Assembly (NCBI GenBank): GCA_902599555.1 | Contig: CACKFQ010000002.1 | Coordinates: 15,235 to 79,234 of the forward strand | DNA: 64,000 nucleotides | DNA from: an uncultured Candidatus Actinomarina sp. | Lineage (GTDB): Bacteria; Actinomycetota; Acidimicrobiia; Actinomarinales; Actinomarinaceae | Direction: 5' to 3' | In this document: positions 37,144-43,907 of the stretch, piece after piece | How the letters are laid out: the number at the start of each line of letters is the position of its first letter | Position numbering within the stretch: the stretch's first letter is position 1 | The notes under the pieces: generated by a model | Database searches by the model: none | The model's input: the letters and a program-made list of their open reading frames with translations, nothing else | Told to the model about the DNA's origin: nothing | Made by a program: the position numbers and the translations under genes

Positions 37144-37779
37144 TTATATGTCTTTTAAATTATTCTTTTTCCATTCATCTATTTTTTGATGATTTCCTGA
37201 CAAAAGTACCTCTGGTACTTTCTTATTTTTAAAGATTTCAGGTCTTGTATAGACAGGATAATCAATTTTATTATCTGTAAAAGTTTCACTTTCTAATGAC
37301 TCAGGGTTTCCTAACACATCTGGGATTTTCCTAATCAATGCTTCTAGTAAATACAAAGCTGGGATTTCTCCCCCGGAAACAACAGATTGGCCAATTGATA
37401 TTTCATAATCAGAATGAATTTCTAAAATTCTTTGATCATAACCCTCGTATCTACCACATACCAAATTAATTGACCTGTATTCAAGTAATTCACTTATGAG
37501 GTTTTCATTTAATTGTTGTCCTGATGGGGTTAGGAAAACATTAATATCTGCTTTGGTGTAAGTTATAGCTTTGTCTAATGGTTCTGGCATCAAAACCATT
37601 CCTGGCCCACCGCCATATGGAGCATCATCAACTTGTTTATATGTTCCTATGCCAAAATCTCTTAGGTTTGTTGAATTTATAGCTACTAAATTATTTTTTA
37701 ATGCTTGATTAATTATCCCGGTATTTTTCCATTCTTCAATTAGATTTGGAAATAATGTTATTACATTGTAAGAATTCAT
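37144..37779 (-). CDS. trmD: tRNA (guanine-N1)-methyltransferase
   Basis: 'VDDAPYGGGPGM', 'CGRYEG', 'YTRP', 'LLSGNH'. Confidence 0.96.
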   Translation of the reverse strand: MNSYNVITLFPNLIEEWKNTGIINQALKNNLVAINSTNLRDFGIGTYKQVDDAPYGGGPGMVLMPEPLDKAITYTKADINVFLTPSGQQLNENLISELLEYRSINLVCGRYEGYDQRILEIHSDYEISIGQSVVSGGEIPALYLLEALIRKIPDVLGNPESLESETFTDNKIDYPVYTRPEIFKNKKVPEVLLSGNHQKIDEWKKNNLKDI

Positions 37780-39611
37780 CTTTTTTCTAAAGTATTTTTT
37801 GTTTCAGTGAATTTTGTATATAGAGTATTTCTCAAAATTGGATTTTTATTTTCAGATTCAATTATTTGAATAAATTGATCTTCAGTTGTTTCTTGCCCAT
37901 GATCTGCTCCTGAAGCTCTGCTAATGTTTTCATTGATCAAAGTACCACCTAAATCATTAACACCAGCACGAAGGAGTTTGCCTGCTCCATCATGACCCAA
38001 TTTCACCCAGCTTGCTTGAATGTTGTCTATTGAATTTACAAAGTAAATTCGCGCTAATGAGTGAATAAGAACTACCTCATCCCAAGTAGGTCCTGGCATA
38101 CTTTTACCTTGTAAGTAAATAGGAGAACCCATATGCACAAAAGGAAGAGGTACAACTTCAGTAAATCCATTTGTTTTGCTTTGAACATTTTTAATTAATG
38201 AAAAATGATTAACCCATGAATCTATATCATCAATATGCCCAAACATAATTGTTGCTGTAGATTTTATCCCTAAGCTATGAGCAACTTCCATTACATATGC
38301 CCATTGTGAAGAAGTTATTTTATCAGGGCAAAGATATTTTCTAACTCTATCGTCTAATATCTCAGCCGCAGTACCGGGGAGTGTGTTTAGTCCAGCTTTT
38401 TTTAACTGACTTAAGTACTCTTCAACACTCAAACCAATAGTCTCTGCACCTTGCCAAATTTCTAAAGGAGTGAAACCGTGAATATGCATTTCCGGAACAG
38501 AAGCTTTTATATCTTCTACCATTTTTAAATAAAACTTTCCCGTATAGTCAGGATGAATGCCACCTTGTAAACACACTTCTGATGCACCCATTTCATACGC
38601 TTCGATACTTCTTTCAACTACTTCTTGTATATCAATGGTGTATGGTTTTTCTTTTAAATTTAAACTATTAGGACCTTTAGAAAATCCACAGAAACCACAT
38701 TTGTAATAGCATTGATTCGTATAATTAATATTTCTATTCTTTACATAAGAAACATTATTTCCGTTTTTTAAAAAATTTAGCTCGTTAGCAACATTTGCAA
38801 TATCATTTATTTTTTCTCCTGCGGTATTAAACAATAATCTTAAATCATCATTATTAATTTGATATCCATCTAATACCCTTTTCAATATTGAGTCAATTTC
38901 AGAATGGTTGATTTGACTTTTATTGTTAAAGACAAAATTATTTAAATTTGGGATATTTTTCCCACTACCAGGAGACCAACTTGTCTCCTCTCTTCTAAAG
39001 CCTCTGACATTTCTAGTTTTTAAGAATCTAAAAAATCTTTCTTTATCAAATTCTTCTCTTGCCTCATCAATAGAAAATACAGGAGAAAGCAAAGTTCGCT
39101 CATAGAAATTTAGACCTTCTAGATTTTGAAGTTCTAATATCTGTTCGGAACTCCAGTCCCTGAGTAGTAAATCTGAAACTCCTGCATTAGCAAATTCAAT
39201 TGCTTCCTCAATTGTTTCAACGTATGTCGATGTTATAAAACTTGTTTTTGAGTTAATAGATTTAAGGAATTGTAGTTCTGAATTAGTAGAAATTAAAATA
39301 GTGTGTGGCTTTAGTCTATCGATAACTTCTAATGCGATTTCGATGTTATTTTTAAAATTGTAAATCAATCTTTTTGGATGAACAGATTTAAACTCCTTCC
39401 AGTTTCCATCAGTAACCATCCATACGTCTGAATTTATGGCGATATCCTTTGATACTGTTTGAAATTCCTTATTATGTAAATTATCTGTATTTACTAATAC
39501 ATCACTTTTTATTAAGAATGTAGAAGTTCCCTCTTTTTTTCTTGAATTTAAATATATTTCATTGTCGTTATCACATGGTCTGATTCGTAGAAAAGAAATG
39601 TTATTGTTCAT
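37776..39611 (-). CDS. cofH: FO synthase subunit CofH with long N-terminal extension
   Basis: 'RNINYTN.CYYKCGFC', 'EVCLQGG', 'PGTAAEIL', 'NIQASWVK', 'ND.GGTL..E.I.RASGA'; likely start is ATG 39611 overlapping the cofG stop. Confidence 0.9.
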   Translation of the reverse strand: MNNNISFLRIRPCDNDNEIYLNSRKKEGTSTFLIKSDVLVNTDNLHNKEFQTVSKDIAINSDVWMVTDGNWKEFKSVHPKRLIYNFKNNIEIALEVIDRLKPHTILISTNSELQFLKSINSKTSFITSTYVETIEEAIEFANAGVSDLLLRDWSSEQILELQNLEGLNFYERTLLSPVFSIDEAREEFDKERFFRFLKTRNVRGFRREETSWSPGSGKNIPNLNNFVFNNKSQINHSEIDSILKRVLDGYQINNDDLRLLFNTAGEKINDIANVANELNFLKNGNNVSYVKNRNINYTNQCYYKCGFCGFSKGPNSLNLKEKPYTIDIQEVVERSIEAYEMGASEVCLQGGIHPDYTGKFYLKMVEDIKASVPEMHIHGFTPLEIWQGAETIGLSVEEYLSQLKKAGLNTLPGTAAEILDDRVRKYLCPDKITSSQWAYVMEVAHSLGIKSTATIMFGHIDDIDSWVNHFSLIKNVQSKTNGFTEVVPLPFVHMGSPIYLQGKSMPGPTWDEVVLIHSLARIYFVNSIDNIQASWVKLGHDGAGKLLRAGVNDLGGTLINENISRASGADHGQETTEDQFIQIIESENKNPILRNTLYTKFTETKNTLEKR

Positions 39612-40722
39612 TGTGTTCTTTTGGATATCCATCTGTATCAATAATATTATTAACTTTTTCAAAAATTTTACTATTTAACCATTCTTTTTTTATAAATTCG
39701 GGATAAACAGGCAACCTCTTTTTTAGGACTTGACCAGTACTTGAAATATCTAATTTTAATTTATTTATGTTTGGCCATAAATGATCTGGATTTACCCAAT
39801 CAATAGTTAATGGAGATATTCCACCTAAATCATTAATGCCGCTTTTTAAAAATATTGTTATATCTGGTGAAAGATTTGGTGGAACTTGCAGAGATATATG
39901 AGAAGGGGCATAAATTCTTGTTGTGGCAATGATTCTTAAAAATAAATCATTTGTTATCTCAGAACTATTCTTCATTAATGTATTTTTCTTTGCTCTGAAA
40001 TTTTGTAATATTACTTCCTGAATTGCAGGATTCTTTTTTACATAATCAATTAAATTTGATATATCATTTACAATTTCTTCTTTTGTTGAGGTTAAACCAA
40101 GAAGTAATCCAGTTGTGACTGGATATTTTTCTTCTAATGCATTTTTAAGGGTATCCAACCTTAAATCAATATATTTAGTATCTGTTTTGTAATGAGCTTT
40201 TCCCTTATCGTATATATTTTTTGAAAATGACTCAATCATAACCCCACCAGATGGTGAGTGTTTTTTTAACTCCTTTATCTCTTGTTTGCTCATTAAACCA
40301 GGGTTGGCGTGAGGAAAAAGATTAAATTTCTCATTTACAGCCTTCATAGAACTAATTAAATAATCATGAGTTGAAGAATGGCCTAATTCTTTAAGTTGGG
40401 TTAAAGCAAAATCCCATTTTAGCTCTGGCTTATCTCCTAAAGTAAACAAAGCTTCATAGCAACCAGCTTCATCACCAGCTTCTGCTATTGAGAGAACTTC
40501 TTCTTGATTTAAATAAGTTCCACCCTCTTTTGGAGATTTTACAAATGTACAATATCCACAATTATCTCTACACATTGTTGTTAGTGGAATAAATACTTTA
40601 GGACTATATGTAATATTGTCGCCAAAGTAATTTGTTTTCTTCTCAAAGGCATTAGCCAACAGTTCTTCAGTTGAAACTGCTCCAAAGATGGAATCATTAA
40701 TTTTTCTTGTTAAATCTGTCAT
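39601..40722 (-). CDS. cofG: FO synthase subunit CofG
   Basis: 'ITYSPKVFIPLT..CRDNCGYC', 'EALFTLGDKPE', 'QEVILQNF', 'QVPPNL', 'GINDLGG.SP...D.VNP'. Confidence 0.93.
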   Translation of the reverse strand: MTDLTRKINDSIFGAVSTEELLANAFEKKTNYFGDNITYSPKVFIPLTTMCRDNCGYCTFVKSPKEGGTYLNQEEVLSIAEAGDEAGCYEALFTLGDKPELKWDFALTQLKELGHSSTHDYLISSMKAVNEKFNLFPHANPGLMSKQEIKELKKHSPSGGVMIESFSKNIYDKGKAHYKTDTKYIDLRLDTLKNALEEKYPVTTGLLLGLTSTKEEIVNDISNLIDYVKKNPAIQEVILQNFRAKKNTLMKNSSEITNDLFLRIIATTRIYAPSHISLQVPPNLSPDITIFLKSGINDLGGISPLTIDWVNPDHLWPNINKLKLDISSTGQVLKKRLPVYPEFIKKEWLNSKIFEKVNNIIDTDGYPKEHNEQ

Positions 40723-40791
40723 AAATAATGGTTTTAAGGTATATTATTAGTTGATTGTAACAACAATTAATCAATAATCTTGTGAGGGTTA

Positions 40792-41796
40792 GTGGCAAAT
40801 GTATCTTTAGTTGGCTTTGGAAGAATAGGTAGAGATCTATTTAGGCAAACATTGGGCGATAATGATATAAACATTGTGTCTATTTCTGACACAGCTGATA
40901 AAGCTAACTTGATATATTTATTAAAGTACGACTCAATTTACGGAAAGCTAGATGCAGAAATTGAGGAAACTGAAACTGGTATTATTGTTAATGGTAAAGA
41001 AATCATATTTAATTCTTGGAAAAATGGTGACGAAGCAAATTGGGATGAACTAAACACTGACATCGTAGTTCTTGCAACTGGCAGACCAAAGACTAAAGAA
41101 GAAGTTGATAAACATTTATCAAAAGGTTGTAAAAAAGTTATCGTTGCATCAACTCCCGAAAATTTTGAAGATATACAAATATATGTGCCTGGTGCAAACG
41201 ATGAAGATATAGATTTAAACTCAAGTGTATTTTCCTTAGGTTCCAATACAGCAAATGCAGTTGCACCTATTCTTAAAGCTTTAGATATTAAAGTTGGGGT
41301 TGAAAGAGCATTTCTCACGACTGTTCATGGATATTCAAATTCAAACCGTTTAGCAGATGTAGCAGGTGAAGGTTTTAGACTTAACAGAGCAGCTGGTGAA
41401 AATATTATCCCAAGTATTACTAAGTCTTCTGAGGTAATATCAAATGTTCTTCCATTTATAGAAGGAAAGGTAGCTTCATCTTCTATGACAGTACCAATTC
41501 CTGACGGAAGTACAGTTGATTTGACAATTGATATCAAAAACGAAACAAGTATTAAAGATATCAATAAAATAATTGAGGATGCTTCCAATTCTGATTTAAA
41601 AAACATTATCGGATTAACATATGATCCAATTGTTTCTTCTGATGTTGTAAGAAGTACACTCTCTGGTTTAGTGGACGGATTAGCAACAATGGGTATTAAT
41701 AATAAAAAAATTAAACTCATAATTTGGTTTGATAATGGTTGGGGTTATGCAGCTAGAATTGTCGATACAGTGAAAAAGCTCGGTAAGGTGTTATAA
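40792..41796 (+). CDS. GAPDH-like paralogue lacking the catalytic cysteine
   Basis: 'GFGRIGR', 'LLKYDS', 'WFDNGWGY' are retained, but 'SLGSNTANAVAP' replaces 'SNASCTTNCLAP'. Confidence 0.9.
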   Translation: MANVSLVGFGRIGRDLFRQTLGDNDINIVSISDTADKANLIYLLKYDSIYGKLDAEIEETETGIIVNGKEIIFNSWKNGDEANWDELNTDIVVLATGRPKTKEEVDKHLSKGCKKVIVASTPENFEDIQIYVPGANDEDIDLNSSVFSLGSNTANAVAPILKALDIKVGVERAFLTTVHGYSNSNRLADVAGEGFRLNRAAGENIIPSITKSSEVISNVLPFIEGKVASSSMTVPIPDGSTVDLTIDIKNETSIKDINKIIEDASNSDLKNIIGLTYDPIVSSDVVRSTLSGLVDGLATMGINNKKIKLIIWFDNGWGYAARIVDTVKKLGKVL

Positions 41797-42801
41797 ATGG
41801 GTAATGTAGCAATAAATGGTTTTGGAAGAATTGGACGTTCTATATTAAGAATAATTGTTGAAAATAATTCTGATATAAATGTTGTTGCAATTAATGACCT
41901 TGGTAATTATGAAAATCTTGCATATCTTTTGAAACATGATTCTGTAATGGGCATTTTAGATAGTGACGTACAAGTTGATGGAGACAATCTTTTTGTTGGA
42001 GATAGAGTTATTAAACTTACCTCAATAAAAGATCCTGCAGAGCTTCCATGGGGCGAATTAGATGTGGATGTTGTAATTGAATCAACTGGAATTTTTAGAG
42101 ATAATGAATCCCTTAATAAACACATATCTGCTGGTGCTAAAAAAGTATTACTTACTGTACCACCCAAAGATGAAATTGACGCAACAATAGTTTTAGGTGT
42201 AAATGACAATGACTTGAAGCCAGATGATAAAATTGTCTCTAATGCATCATGTACTACAAACTGTTTAGCGCCTATAGCTAAAGTACTGGATGATAATTTT
42301 GGAATCAAATCTGGTCTTATGACGACTGTACATGCATACACTAATGATCAAGCACTAGCTGAAACAACACATAGTGACTTTAGAAGAGGAAGAAGTGCTA
42401 CCCAAAATATAATTCCTACTTCAACAGGTGCAGCTAAAGCAGTTGGTATGGTTTTACCTGAATTAAACGGTAAATTAGATGGCATGGCAATGAGAGTTCC
42501 TGTGCCAGATGGAAGTGTAATTGATTTAGTAGTGGAATTAGAAAAATCTGTTTCTATAGATGATGTAAATAAAGCTGTTAAAGAAGCTGCAGATAACGAA
42601 CTGAAAGGTATTTTAGAGTACTCTGAAGTTCCTCTTGTATCTACCGATATATTAAATAATCCACACTCAAGTATTTATGATGCATCTTCTACACAATTAA
42701 TAGACGAAAATCATGTCAAAGTTGTATGTTGGTACGACAATGAATGGGGTTACTCAAATAGAGTTGTAGATCTTATTGGAAATCTATTAAATAATGGATA
42801 A
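41797..42801 (+). CDS. gap: Type I glyceraldehyde-3-phosphate dehydrogenase
   Basis: 'INGFGRIGR', 'SNASCTTNCLAP', 'STGAAKAV', 'RVP', 'WYDNEWGY'. Confidence 0.97.
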   Translation: MGNVAINGFGRIGRSILRIIVENNSDINVVAINDLGNYENLAYLLKHDSVMGILDSDVQVDGDNLFVGDRVIKLTSIKDPAELPWGELDVDVVIESTGIFRDNESLNKHISAGAKKVLLTVPPKDEIDATIVLGVNDNDLKPDDKIVSNASCTTNCLAPIAKVLDDNFGIKSGLMTTVHAYTNDQALAETTHSDFRRGRSATQNIIPTSTGAAKAVGMVLPELNGKLDGMAMRVPVPDGSVIDLVVELEKSVSIDDVNKAVKEAADNELKGILEYSEVPLVSTDILNNPHSSIYDASSTQLIDENHVKVVCWYDNEWGYSNRVVDLIGNLLNNG

Positions 42802-43210
42802 CAATTTTCCAATCGCCCCGGAAGCAATTGGAAATTATGTAACATATAAAAAAATTGGAAACTATGTGTACACATCTGGACATGTACCTATTACAGAACA
42901 AAAAAAATATATAGGAAAGGTACCAACAGAAATTTCAGTAGATGAAGCCTATAAAGCCGCAGAGTTATGTGCTGAACTTACTATTGCAACAATTAAAAAA
43001 CATGGATCTATTGAAAATTTACAACCTGTAAATGTTATTGGTTTTGTAAATGCTAATGAAGGTTTTGGGGATCACGCAAAAGTCCTCAATGGGTTTACAG
43101 ATAAACTTTCAGAATACTTTAGTGAAAAGTCGACACGATCAGCTGTAGGTGTTGCTAGCTTACCGTTAAATGTATGTGTAGAAGTACAGTGTGTTTTTAT
43201 AAATGGGTAA
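42794..43210 (+). CDS. RidA/YjgF family protein
   Basis: 'VYTSGHVP', 'RSAVGVASLP...VEV'. Confidence 0.88.
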   Translation: MDNNFPIAPEAIGNYVTYKKIGNYVYTSGHVPITEQKKYIGKVPTEISVDEAYKAAELCAELTIATIKKHGSIENLQPVNVIGFVNANEGFGDHAKVLNGFTDKLSEYFSEKSTRSAVGVASLPLNVCVEVQCVFING

Positions 43211-43907
43211 ATTAATAGGAATATCCACTGGTCTTAAAAATGTAGACATGGCGCCTGGTAATATTCCATGCGTTGTTATTAATAGTGATTTTGTTAAAGC
43301 ATGTAACAACTATGGAAATACTGCTGTTATCTTTGGGCCACAAGAAAATTTAGAAATGATAGACGTATCAAAATTTGATGCAATAGTAATTTCTGGTGGT
43401 GGTGATATTAACCCAAATATCTATGGAGAAGAAAAACTCGAAAAAACAATAAGAATTTCGGATAATAGGGATAGCACTGAATTGGCAATGTTTAAATCTG
43501 CAGAAGAACATAATATAAAAACTCTTGCTATATGTAGAGGACATCAATTATTAAATGTTTATAAAGGTGGGACACTTTATCAAGATCTCAAAGATAATGG
43601 ATTTAGTCAAATCGACCACGATAAACCATTTGATGACGCACGTTCGCATGTTCATGATGTAAATATAGAAAGTAACTCAAAATTATATAAAATAATTCAA
43701 GAAAATGAGATACAAGTAAATTCAATTCATCATCAGGCAATAAACAAAATTGGTAATGACTTACAAATAACTGCTAAATCACCTGATGGTGTTATTGAGG
43801 GTATAGAGGTCACAAATGGTTGGAATGCTATAGGAGTGCAATGGCATCCTGAAAACATGCTTGAAGACAATGTAAGCATTAAATTGTTTGAATGGTTAAA
43901 TAGTTAA
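43203..43907 (+). CDS. Gamma-glutamyl-gamma-aminobutyrate hydrolase family (peptidase C26, PuuD-like)
   Basis: 'SGGGDINP..YG', 'AICRGHQLLNV..GGTLYQD', 'VNSIHHQ', 'VQWHPE'. Confidence 0.9.
   Translation: MGKLIGISTGLKNVDMAPGNIPCVVINSDFVKACNNYGNTAVIFGPQENLEMIDVSKFDAIVISGGGDINPNIYGEEKLEKTIRISDNRDSTELAMFKSAEEHNIKTLAICRGHQLLNVYKGGTLYQDLKDNGFSQIDHDKPFDDARSHVHDVNIESNSKLYKIIQENEIQVNSIHHQAINKIGNDLQITAKSPDGVIEGIEVTNGWNAIGVQWHPENMLEDNVSIKLFEWLNS

Follow-up and report, generated by a model that had tools for sequence, protein, structure and literature searches.

The window analysed here, a stretch of 64,000 nucleotides from an uncultured Candidatus Actinomarina sp. (contig CACKFQ010000002.1), contains two abutting genes of the glyceraldehyde-3-phosphate dehydrogenase (GAPDH) fold, which we call A (the first) and B (the second); residue numbers are those of the window copies. 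As judged from its residues and its genomic setting, A is a catalytically dead member of an old and widespread family of GAPDH paralogues, and in the loci examined it always stands immediately upstream of a coupled Gap. With modest confidence, we suggest that selection maintains A as a GAPDH paralogue without catalytic function, which would be co-translated with a specialised Gap and would assemble with it.

Sequence features of the gene pair

Both genes lie on the + strand and encode 334 amino acids (aa) each, A from a GTG start (40792..41796) and B, a canonical type I GAPDH, from an ATG start (41797..42801), and the stop of A and the start of B form a TAA/ATG junction with zero spacing (41794..41799). 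An earlier note, made from the letters of this DNA, had described two abutting 334-aa genes of the GAPDH fold (TAA/ATG at 41796/41797), the first of them free of frameshift and truncation. The open reading frames (ORFs) and the Pfam matches agree on the two genes, and the frame of A is intact over all 334 aa. When the proteins were compared with the Pfam models Gp_dh_N and Gp_dh_C, A scored 88.3 and 131.3 bits and B scored 122.6 and 230.8 bits, respectively, all above cut-off. The two proteins are 38% identical (127 of 331 residues, E 3e-84). The NCBIfam model TIGR01534, with a cut-off of 367.2 bits, separates them, since B scores above it (446.2 bits) and A below it (273.1 bits). A also lies far under the cut-offs of the Epd models (203.1 against 530.55 bits for TIGR01532, and 211 against 539 for NF010058); it is under the cut-off of every curated equivalog, and no Pfam or NCBIfam family besides GAPDH or Epd matches it. 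In the source annotations, the copies are named glyceraldehyde 3-phosphate dehydrogenase, type I GAPDH or hypothetical protein.

The AlphaFold2 (AF2) model of A has a predicted local distance difference test (pLDDT) value of 90.5 and is less confident only at the S-loop, residues 182-200. When we compared it with the GAPDH structure 1gd1 using Foldseek, the template modelling (TM) score was 0.91, and A is 39% identical to Bacillus stearothermophilus GAPDH and equal to it in length. In the source genome (an assembly of 1.02 Mb, 80.8% complete), A and B are the sole genes that pass the Gp_dh_C cut-off, and B is the only canonical GAPDH.

Residues lost and retained in the A family

The alignment of A with B revealed substitutions at the catalytic Cys, in the phosphate loop and at both anion-site Arg residues. 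The region of the catalytic Cys reads SLGSNTANAVAP in A and SNASCTTNCLAP in B, with Asn152 of A at the Cys position; the phosphate loop reads ITKSSE in A and STGAAK in B; and A has MTVP where B has MRVP, which places Thr233 at the position of an anion-site Arg. These three changes had been pointed out in the earlier note, and all are seen in the alignment. A further loss, absent from that note, is in the S-loop, where B has FRRGR and A has FRLNR, so that Arg197 of B corresponds to Leu197 of A. We take Arg197 and Arg233 of B to be the anion-site residues Arg195 and Arg231 in B. stearothermophilus numbering; the numbering of Cys149, Asp32 and Asn313 in that enzyme agrees with PDB titles. The motifs said to be retained, GFGRIGR, His179, the S-loop end R..RAA.ENIIP and WFDNGWGY, are all present in the window copy of A, as is Asp33.

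We then counted residues over 109 aligned A copies from several phyla, which is the sample for the counts below unless stated otherwise. Arg233 is gone from all 109 copies (Asn in 60 and Thr in 47), Arg197 is retained in just 30, and Glu316 is replaced by Gly in 99. The TGAAK loop is variable, and its Gly211 is not among the six commonest A residues at that position (Asn 40, Lys 31, Arg 9, Trp 9, Ser 5 and Pro 5). At the former Cys position, we found Asn in 72 copies, Ser in 15, Cys in 9, Ala in 8, Ile in 2 and Pro in 2, and Val also occurs. Mapped on the A tree, position 152 underwent at least nine changes of state, at least three of them between Cys and non-Cys, and such repeated change is hard to square with catalysis at this position family-wide. 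Based on residue comparison, what marks the A family is that its phosphate and anion sites are gone, and the loss of Cys came later and repeatedly. The Cys loss is not itself the defining change, as 9 of the 109 copies keep the Cys; the family is set apart by having lost Arg233, the TGAAK loop and Glu316. The lack of the nucleophile here, of both anion-site Arg residues and of the TGAAK loop shows that A would be incapable of the GAPDH reaction as it is known.

Other parts of the protein are strongly retained. In the NAD (nicotinamide adenine dinucleotide) glycine loop, Gly8 and Gly10 are present in 109 of 109 copies and Gly13 in 107, and Asp33 is present in 107. Asn315 is retained in 96 copies, and Arg196, Arg199 and the NIIP motif of the S-loop are retained in the family. 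In the old pocket, we found Ser151 in 108 copies, Thr153 in 102, His179 in 100 (with Lys in 8 and Asp in 1) and Thr210 in 95, and Asn152 is present in 69 of 69 A copies from Acidimicrobiia. Over 50 diverse A copies, 28 positions are invariant. The invariance of Asn152 in Acidimicrobiia and the retention of the Ser, Thr and His residues suggest that the pocket of A may still bind something.

This constraint on the pocket also tells against a non-catalytic A, as Ser151, Thr153, His179 and Thr210 are kept, Asn152 is invariant in the class and 9 of the 109 copies have both Cys and His, which leaves room for chemistry or for specific binding of a ligand there. A might be an active enzyme of changed chemistry, namely a thiol-free NAD-dependent oxidoreductase or hydrolase with a non-phosphorylated or singly bound triose-related substrate. 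The Rossmann fold, Asp33, His179 and Asn315, which are mostly retained, would suit such an enzyme, as would the invariant Asn152 of the 69 Acidimicrobiia copies, the presence of Cys and His in 10 of the 46 A-bearing loci of the wider scan described below, and the position of the pair at times beside genes for phosphofructokinase (PFK), class-I aldolase, pyruvate kinase, 2-keto-3-deoxy-6-phosphogluconate (KDPG) aldolase or a glycerate-kinase-like protein. However, no one chemistry uses all of Asn, Ser, Cys, Ala, Ile, Pro and Val at position 152, and His179 is Lys in eight copies and Asp in one. When we looked for positions at least 0.85 conserved in A yet unlike B, only I280 and S283 were found, and a new catalytic centre made of A-specific conserved residues was not evident. 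Moreover, the families matched are GAPDH and Epd only, with all equivalog scores under cut-off. We consider an altered chemistry of this kind distinctly improbable.

Two variants of the A family were observed in addition. First, 8 of the 20 A copies from other Acidimicrobiia families (L054-L073; including L063, L066, L067 and L070) have Lys in place of His179 and FNNGWG for FDNGWG, and they look like a possible sub-type of the dead paralogue. Second, the DNGW motif, with Asn313, is lost in A of two Bacteroidota (L096 and L097) and of Candidatus Azophilus, Pseudomonadales and Halioglobus (L104, L106 and L113), where HTAL, HAAM, ES-L and ENQ- are read. These five copies, which may have lost NAD binding, still lie directly upstream of a canonical gap.

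Distribution and selection

In order to follow the pair across genomes, we surveyed the order, the class and a wider set of bacteria. A GAPDH match was found in 60 of 65 Actinomarinales genomes, including 12 of 12 high-quality ones, and the five genomes lacking a match are 74-83% complete and have neither gene. A stands beside B in 59 of the 60 GAPDH-bearing genomes and is 55-97% identical to the window copy; in the one exception (G030), gene A is truncated by the contig end. In another genome (G063), B is cut at the contig end with its first 71 residues visible. The class survey covered 301 Acidimicrobiia genomes, 236 of them outside Actinomarinales, and in 48 of these 236 an A-type gene (40-47% identical) lies directly upstream of a B-type gene. 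By family, the pair is found in 35 of 35 genomes of f2 (34 of 34 when the unpublished G257 is left out), in 8 of 9 of f10, in 2 of 7 of f15, in 2 of 2 of f34 and in the single genome of f40 (1 of 1). The other Acidimicrobiia families have a single Gap.

When the 150 best representatives of clusters built at 50% identity were aligned, the Cys was missing in 22 of 152 stretches. We then scanned named genomes with an alignment (A1) of Cys-less representatives without Asn and took the best 80 loci, of which 46 contain an A-type gene. According to the record titles, these loci belong to Thermoanaerobaculia, Holophagales, other Acidobacteriota, Desulfobacterales, a 'delta proteobacterium', Bdellovibrionales, Eisenbacteria, Planctomycetota, Bacteroidota, Lentisphaeria, Marinimicrobia/Neomarinimicrobiota, Pseudomonadales/Halioglobus, Candidatus Azophilus and Acidimicrobiia. 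A canonical gap comes next in 44 of the 46, and the other two (L103 and L109) run out at the contig edge. The remaining 34 of the 80 loci have a canonical gap alone (haloarchaea, Patescibacteria and others), with less than 1 kb upstream visible in 7 of them. In none of 114 A-bearing loci was A seen apart from B, and the four A copies that lack a scored B are followed by a contig end or by B in a broken frame. A look-up in the ESM Atlas returned GAPDH clusters with generic names only. Three long cluster representatives (P0124, 2089 aa; P0140, 1455 aa; P0222, 1862 aa) contain up to four GAPDH-like stretches, and all of their aligned stretches have the Cys.

We calculated the ratio of non-synonymous to synonymous substitution rates (dN/dS) by the Nei-Gojobori method in 48 Actinomarinales genomes, using 97 genome pairs with dS 0.05-1. 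The dN/dS values of A and B were 0.094 and 0.064, respectively, in the 64 genome pairs with dS 0.05-0.5, and 0.086 and 0.048, respectively, in the 33 pairs with dS 0.5-1.0, and the non-synonymous rate of A was about 1.7-1.9 times that of B. Full-length frames are intact in the 110 A-B pairs examined. These results indicate that A is under strong purifying selection. The proposal of the earlier note that A is a maintained paralogue is thus borne out, as the pair occurs across the order, the class and several phyla with a dN/dS of about 0.09 and is neither restricted to one genome nor neutral. The marine Actinomarinales, which are abundant, have streamlined genomes of about 1 Mb and still keep the pair, an argument that the dead copy is worth its cost to the cell.

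A decaying, functionless duplicate on its way to becoming a pseudogene could be suspected from the missing catalytic residues, from an evolution 1.7 times faster than that of B and from a 1-nt insertion in one genome. In that genome (G048, locus L030), an additional A in an A5 run splits gene A into frames of 256 and 90 residues, the copy being otherwise 97% identical; it is the only disrupted copy seen and counts against a functional A there, and the insertion could stem from the assembly or represent a genuine, recent frameshift. On the contrary, a dN/dS of 0.09, the intact full-length frame in 110 pairs of several phyla, the 28 invariant positions across 50 diverse copies and the retention in genomes of about 1 Mb make decay scarcely credible.

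When 50 A and 50 B proteins were placed in one tree, each kind fell on one side of a single branch, with a value of 99 in the Shimodaira-Hasegawa-like approximate likelihood ratio test (SH-aLRT), indicating that the A genes of all these phyla have one origin and do not stem from repeated local duplications. When a larger tree of 206 rows was calculated, A attached near a few representatives, within an 80-row part that holds all partnered B (SH-aLRT 94). A may have arisen by duplication of a B-type gap, but the 206-row tree does not place A as the sister of partnered B.

The partnered Gap

The B proteins that stand next to A differ from other Gap proteins. Partnered B of other phyla is 57-65% identical to the window B, whereas ten solo Gaps from other families of Acidimicrobiia are merely 51-57% identical to it. 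When B of the pair alignment (111 pairs) was compared with 143 other Gaps, a signature was seen that comprises M51, L119-T120-V121 (usually I/V-S-A), A188, M232, D238 and V323. A188 is present in 50 of 50 partnered B and in 0 of 143 other Gaps, and three of the signature residues are also found in the A family (A188 in 95 of 109 copies, M232 in 62 and D238 in 77).

The 206-row tree, which includes 50 partnered B, 43 solo Gaps and 100 representatives, places 50 of 50 partnered B in one group of 54, with the 43 solo Gaps and 100 representatives outside, but as a clade this group is weakly supported (SH-aLRT 60), which speaks against resting a specialised Gap on it, and we did not rely on it. The other four rows of the group are three representatives of unknown context and one locus (L129) whose upstream DNA is not visible. 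Based on the signature and the identities, partnered B is a distinct Gap subgroup at the level of its residues.

Translational coupling and predicted assembly

The spacing from the stop of A to the start of B was measured in 110 A-B pairs, in all of which A is directly upstream of B. It is -8 nt in 19 pairs, -4 nt in 37, -1 nt in 16, 0 nt in 18, +1 to +3 nt in 14 and larger in 6, so that the stop and the start overlap or are at most 3 nt apart in 104 of 110 pairs. In the window, a Shine-Dalgarno-like AAGGTG for B (41785..41790, + strand) is located within the 3' end of A, 6 nt ahead of the ATG of B, in keeping with the stop/start coupling of the 104 pairs. A second Shine-Dalgarno-like site, GAGGG (40784..40788, + strand), stands 3 nt ahead of the GTG of A, within the 69 nt that separate A from the divergent cofG; promoter-like matches in this spacer are not commoner than in shuffled sequence. 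The co-translation with Gap that had been proposed earlier agrees with this arrangement, and the pair appears to be set up for coupled translation. In contigs from RNA libraries of four studies, gene A is covered at 90-99% likeness, and one contig of 689 nt (run X2, 41680-42368) spans the A/B junction, although such contigs may hold DNA and are no proof of a single transcript. In single runs, RNA-contig cover is missing over parts of the stretch.

We next modelled a complex of one B and one A chain, each given as a 50-row alignment, in three runs with three controls. The predicted A:B dimer had an ipSAE interface score of 0.73 (0.73, 0.74 and 0.71 in the runs), against 0.00 for the best of the three controls. 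The runs had at least 99% of their contacts in common, and the pLDDT of the partner was 92. Of 157 solved complexes, 116 attain the mark applied to ipSAE, as do 2 of 215 mismatched pairs; these counts are a rough guide here, custom alignments having been used. The predicted interface is the canonical GAPDH sheet together with the S-loop (residues 172-178, 194-207, 225-247, 279-283 and 295-310).

The sequences were then examined at this interface. First, 12 of the 28 invariant A positions fall within the 44-residue predicted interface (Fisher p 4e-5). Second, the identity between A and B from one genome is 55% within the interface and 37% outside it (109 genomes). Third, of the positions at which B is at least 95% conserved, A keeps 13 of 19 within the interface and 35 of 101 outside it (p 0.0065). 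Together with the residue counts above, these comparisons show that selection in A preserves most of all the residues of the canonical interface, and besides them the Rossmann NAD loop and a few hydroxyl and His residues of the old pocket.

Based on these observations, we suggest the following arrangement. A would be made in step with B off one mRNA and would join B via the canonical GAPDH dimer interface to form a mixed tetramer, probably (AB)2, in which turnover would occur at the B sites only. A would then be a structural or regulatory subunit, possibly with NAD(H) or a phosphorylated ligand still bound in its disabled pocket, and its candidate effects on Gap are stabilisation and the tuning of cooperativity or of the cofactor response. 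In a stronger form, the glycolytic GAPDH of a dozen bacterial lineages might be an obligate (AB)2 enzyme of two active subunits and two ancient dead ones that retain a pocket for NAD(H) or phosphate and serve as built-in allosteric sensors, with the partnered Gap co-adapted and impaired alone; we put this form forward only tentatively.

Here, we need to consider several points that weigh against a mixed tetramer. The success of the A:B model may only mirror the solved GAPDH homotetramers, and the retention of the interface and of the NAD loop would fit an A4 homotetramer equally well. The patristic distances of A and B are correlated (r 0.84, slope 1.5, A being the faster), as is expected of any linked genes with a common phylogeny. 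Furthermore, A is variable at several secondary NAD contacts where B is invariant (N7, N33, G98, F100 and T120), so that NAD binding by A is presumptive. A mixed tetramer and two separate tetramers are not separated with certainty by the modelling and conservation data. Thus the heterotetramer with Gap that the earlier note had put forward stands as a prediction, favoured by a model that passes its controls and by the kept interface, and weakened by the equally fitting homotetramer of A.

A could accordingly be a stand-alone protein, for example A4, with a non-catalytic role as a sensor or buffer of NAD(H) or phosphometabolites, as a regulator or as an RNA-binding protein, and stand beside gap for co-regulation only. 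The near-universal NAD glycine loop and Asp33 would suit such a role, as would Ser151, Thr153 and His179 in the dead pocket, an interface conservation that also befits homo-oligomers, and a monomer model that is confident by itself (pLDDT 90.5). However, co-regulation alone leaves the stop/start overlap in 104 of 110 pairs unexplained, and no A was found away from B in the 114 A-bearing loci. In addition, the neighbouring B has a signature that is partly common to A (A188, M232 and D238), and paralogues that are kept apart usually diverge at the interface, whereas A and B are most alike there (55% against 37%). We therefore regard a separate A protein as rather unlikely and prefer the co-assembly of A with Gap.

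Comparison with known systems

Few enzymes have been studied as much as GAPDH, which is regarded as a homotetramer in bacteria. Like type I GAPDH (GapA; PF00044 and PF02800, TIGR01534), A has the two-domain fold, the NAD loop, the equivalent of His176, the S-loop end and the dimer-interface residues. It differs from type I GAPDH in that it lacks the catalytic Cys and both anion-site Arg residues, has an altered TGAAK loop and Glu316 and falls under the TIGR01534 cut-off, and in that it never occurs as the sole GAPDH, a canonical copy always accompanying it. Epd/GapB of gammaproteobacteria (TIGR01532, NF010058) is likewise a paralogue that has diverged from GAPDH and handles phosphate differently. 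Epd retains the catalytic Cys and is an active enzyme, whereas A is without the Cys and scores far under the Epd cut-offs.

The chloroplast enzyme GapA/GapB is an A2B2 GAPDH in which both subunits are catalytic and regulation is exerted via the C-terminal extension of GapB; 7q53 and 2pkq are structures of GapA and GapB. The arrangement proposed here resembles it in that two GAPDH paralogues would share one tetramer, with one of them regulatory. It differs in that A of the window is dead, both proteins are 334 aa long without an extension, and the genes form a coupled bacterial pair.

Inactive partner subunits are known in other enzymes, and in Pseudomonas an inactive dihydroorotase, PyrC', partners aspartate transcarbamoylase. 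Dead paralogues acting as partner subunits are also described for the prozyme of trypanosomatid S-adenosylmethionine decarboxylase (AdoMetDC; PMC6221367) and for plant PDX1.2 (PMC6829848). A resembles the prozymes in that it is related to an active enzyme by duplication, has been retained by selection in spite of its lost catalytic residues and is proposed to work in a complex with its active counterpart. On the other hand, A belongs to another enzyme family and occurs in many bacterial phyla instead of one lineage, and both its complex and any effect on activity are predictions. In a full-text literature search, with subscription-only papers outside its scope, a Cys-less GAPDH paralogue beside gap was not found described. 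A passage of the Actinomarinales genome paper (PMC7771536) says of glycolysis just that the Embden-Meyerhof-Parnas (EMP) pathway is encoded.

A conserved two-gene module, in which a specialised Gap comes after a dead GAPDH paralogue, thus appears in many bacterial phyla, including some Gammaproteobacteria, and metabolic reconstructions count two GAPDHs where one alone can be active. If A and B assemble, the module would represent a new architecture for a core glycolytic enzyme and would be naturally suited as a model for half-of-sites behaviour, which has long been debated for GAPDH tetramers.

Neighbouring genes

In the window, B is followed by a RidA/YjgF-like gene (42794..43210, + strand; Pfam Ribonuc_L-PSP, 46 bits) that overlaps it by 8 nt, and this gene is followed by a Peptidase C26 or class-I glutamine amidotransferase-like gene (43203..43907, + strand; Peptidase_C26, 186.3 bits) that overlaps ridA by 8 nt. 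A, B, ridA and the C26 gene thus look like a four-gene translationally coupled unit, which ends with the C26 gene, the next gene being convergent. The ridA/C26 arrangement recurs in a second Actinomarinales genus (L034) and is absent beside the pair in other phyla, where the flanking genes vary and are sometimes of the glycolytic kinds listed above. Since the flanks differ between phyla, the A-B pair itself is the conserved unit. The continuation of the unit into ridA and C26, as described in the earlier note, therefore holds for the window and for Actinomarinales and does not extend outside the order. That pgk and tpi do not follow the pair, as stated there, agrees with the gene map, which has ridA and C26 instead.

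Neither pgk nor tpi was found in the source assembly, which is 80.8% complete. As pgk is present in 5 of 5 relatives, its absence from the source genome is attributed to an assembly gap and not to a true lack of the gene. In a relative assembled as a single contig (G019), pgk is about 180 kb from the pair, indicating that the gap pair in this group is outside any gap-pgk-tpi operon. Between 40500 and 44500, neither promoter-like sites (16, against 22.0 +/- 5.1 in shuffles) nor terminator-like sites (3, against 1.6 +/- 1.3 in shuffles) gave a usable signal, and no terminator-like site was on the + strand within the unit.

A search for longer proteins returned one candidate A-B fusion, a metagenomic protein of 677 aa (P0271) and the sole match. 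Its A-type gene loses the frame near residue 245 and is then read on into B, and we rejected it as a fusion; it is probably a frameshift, sequencing or gene-call artefact in a high-GC contig. The lack of a genuine fusion says little against an interaction of A with B.

Upstream of the pair, the - strand carries FO-synthase genes that are divergent from A, a cofH-like gene (37776..39662, 628 aa) and a cofG-like gene (39601..40722, 373 aa). The cofH ORF, which overlaps cofG by 62 nt, carries about 300 residues before the radical-SAM domain (312-488). Translation of cofH may in fact begin further downstream, or its N-terminal part may be an extra domain.

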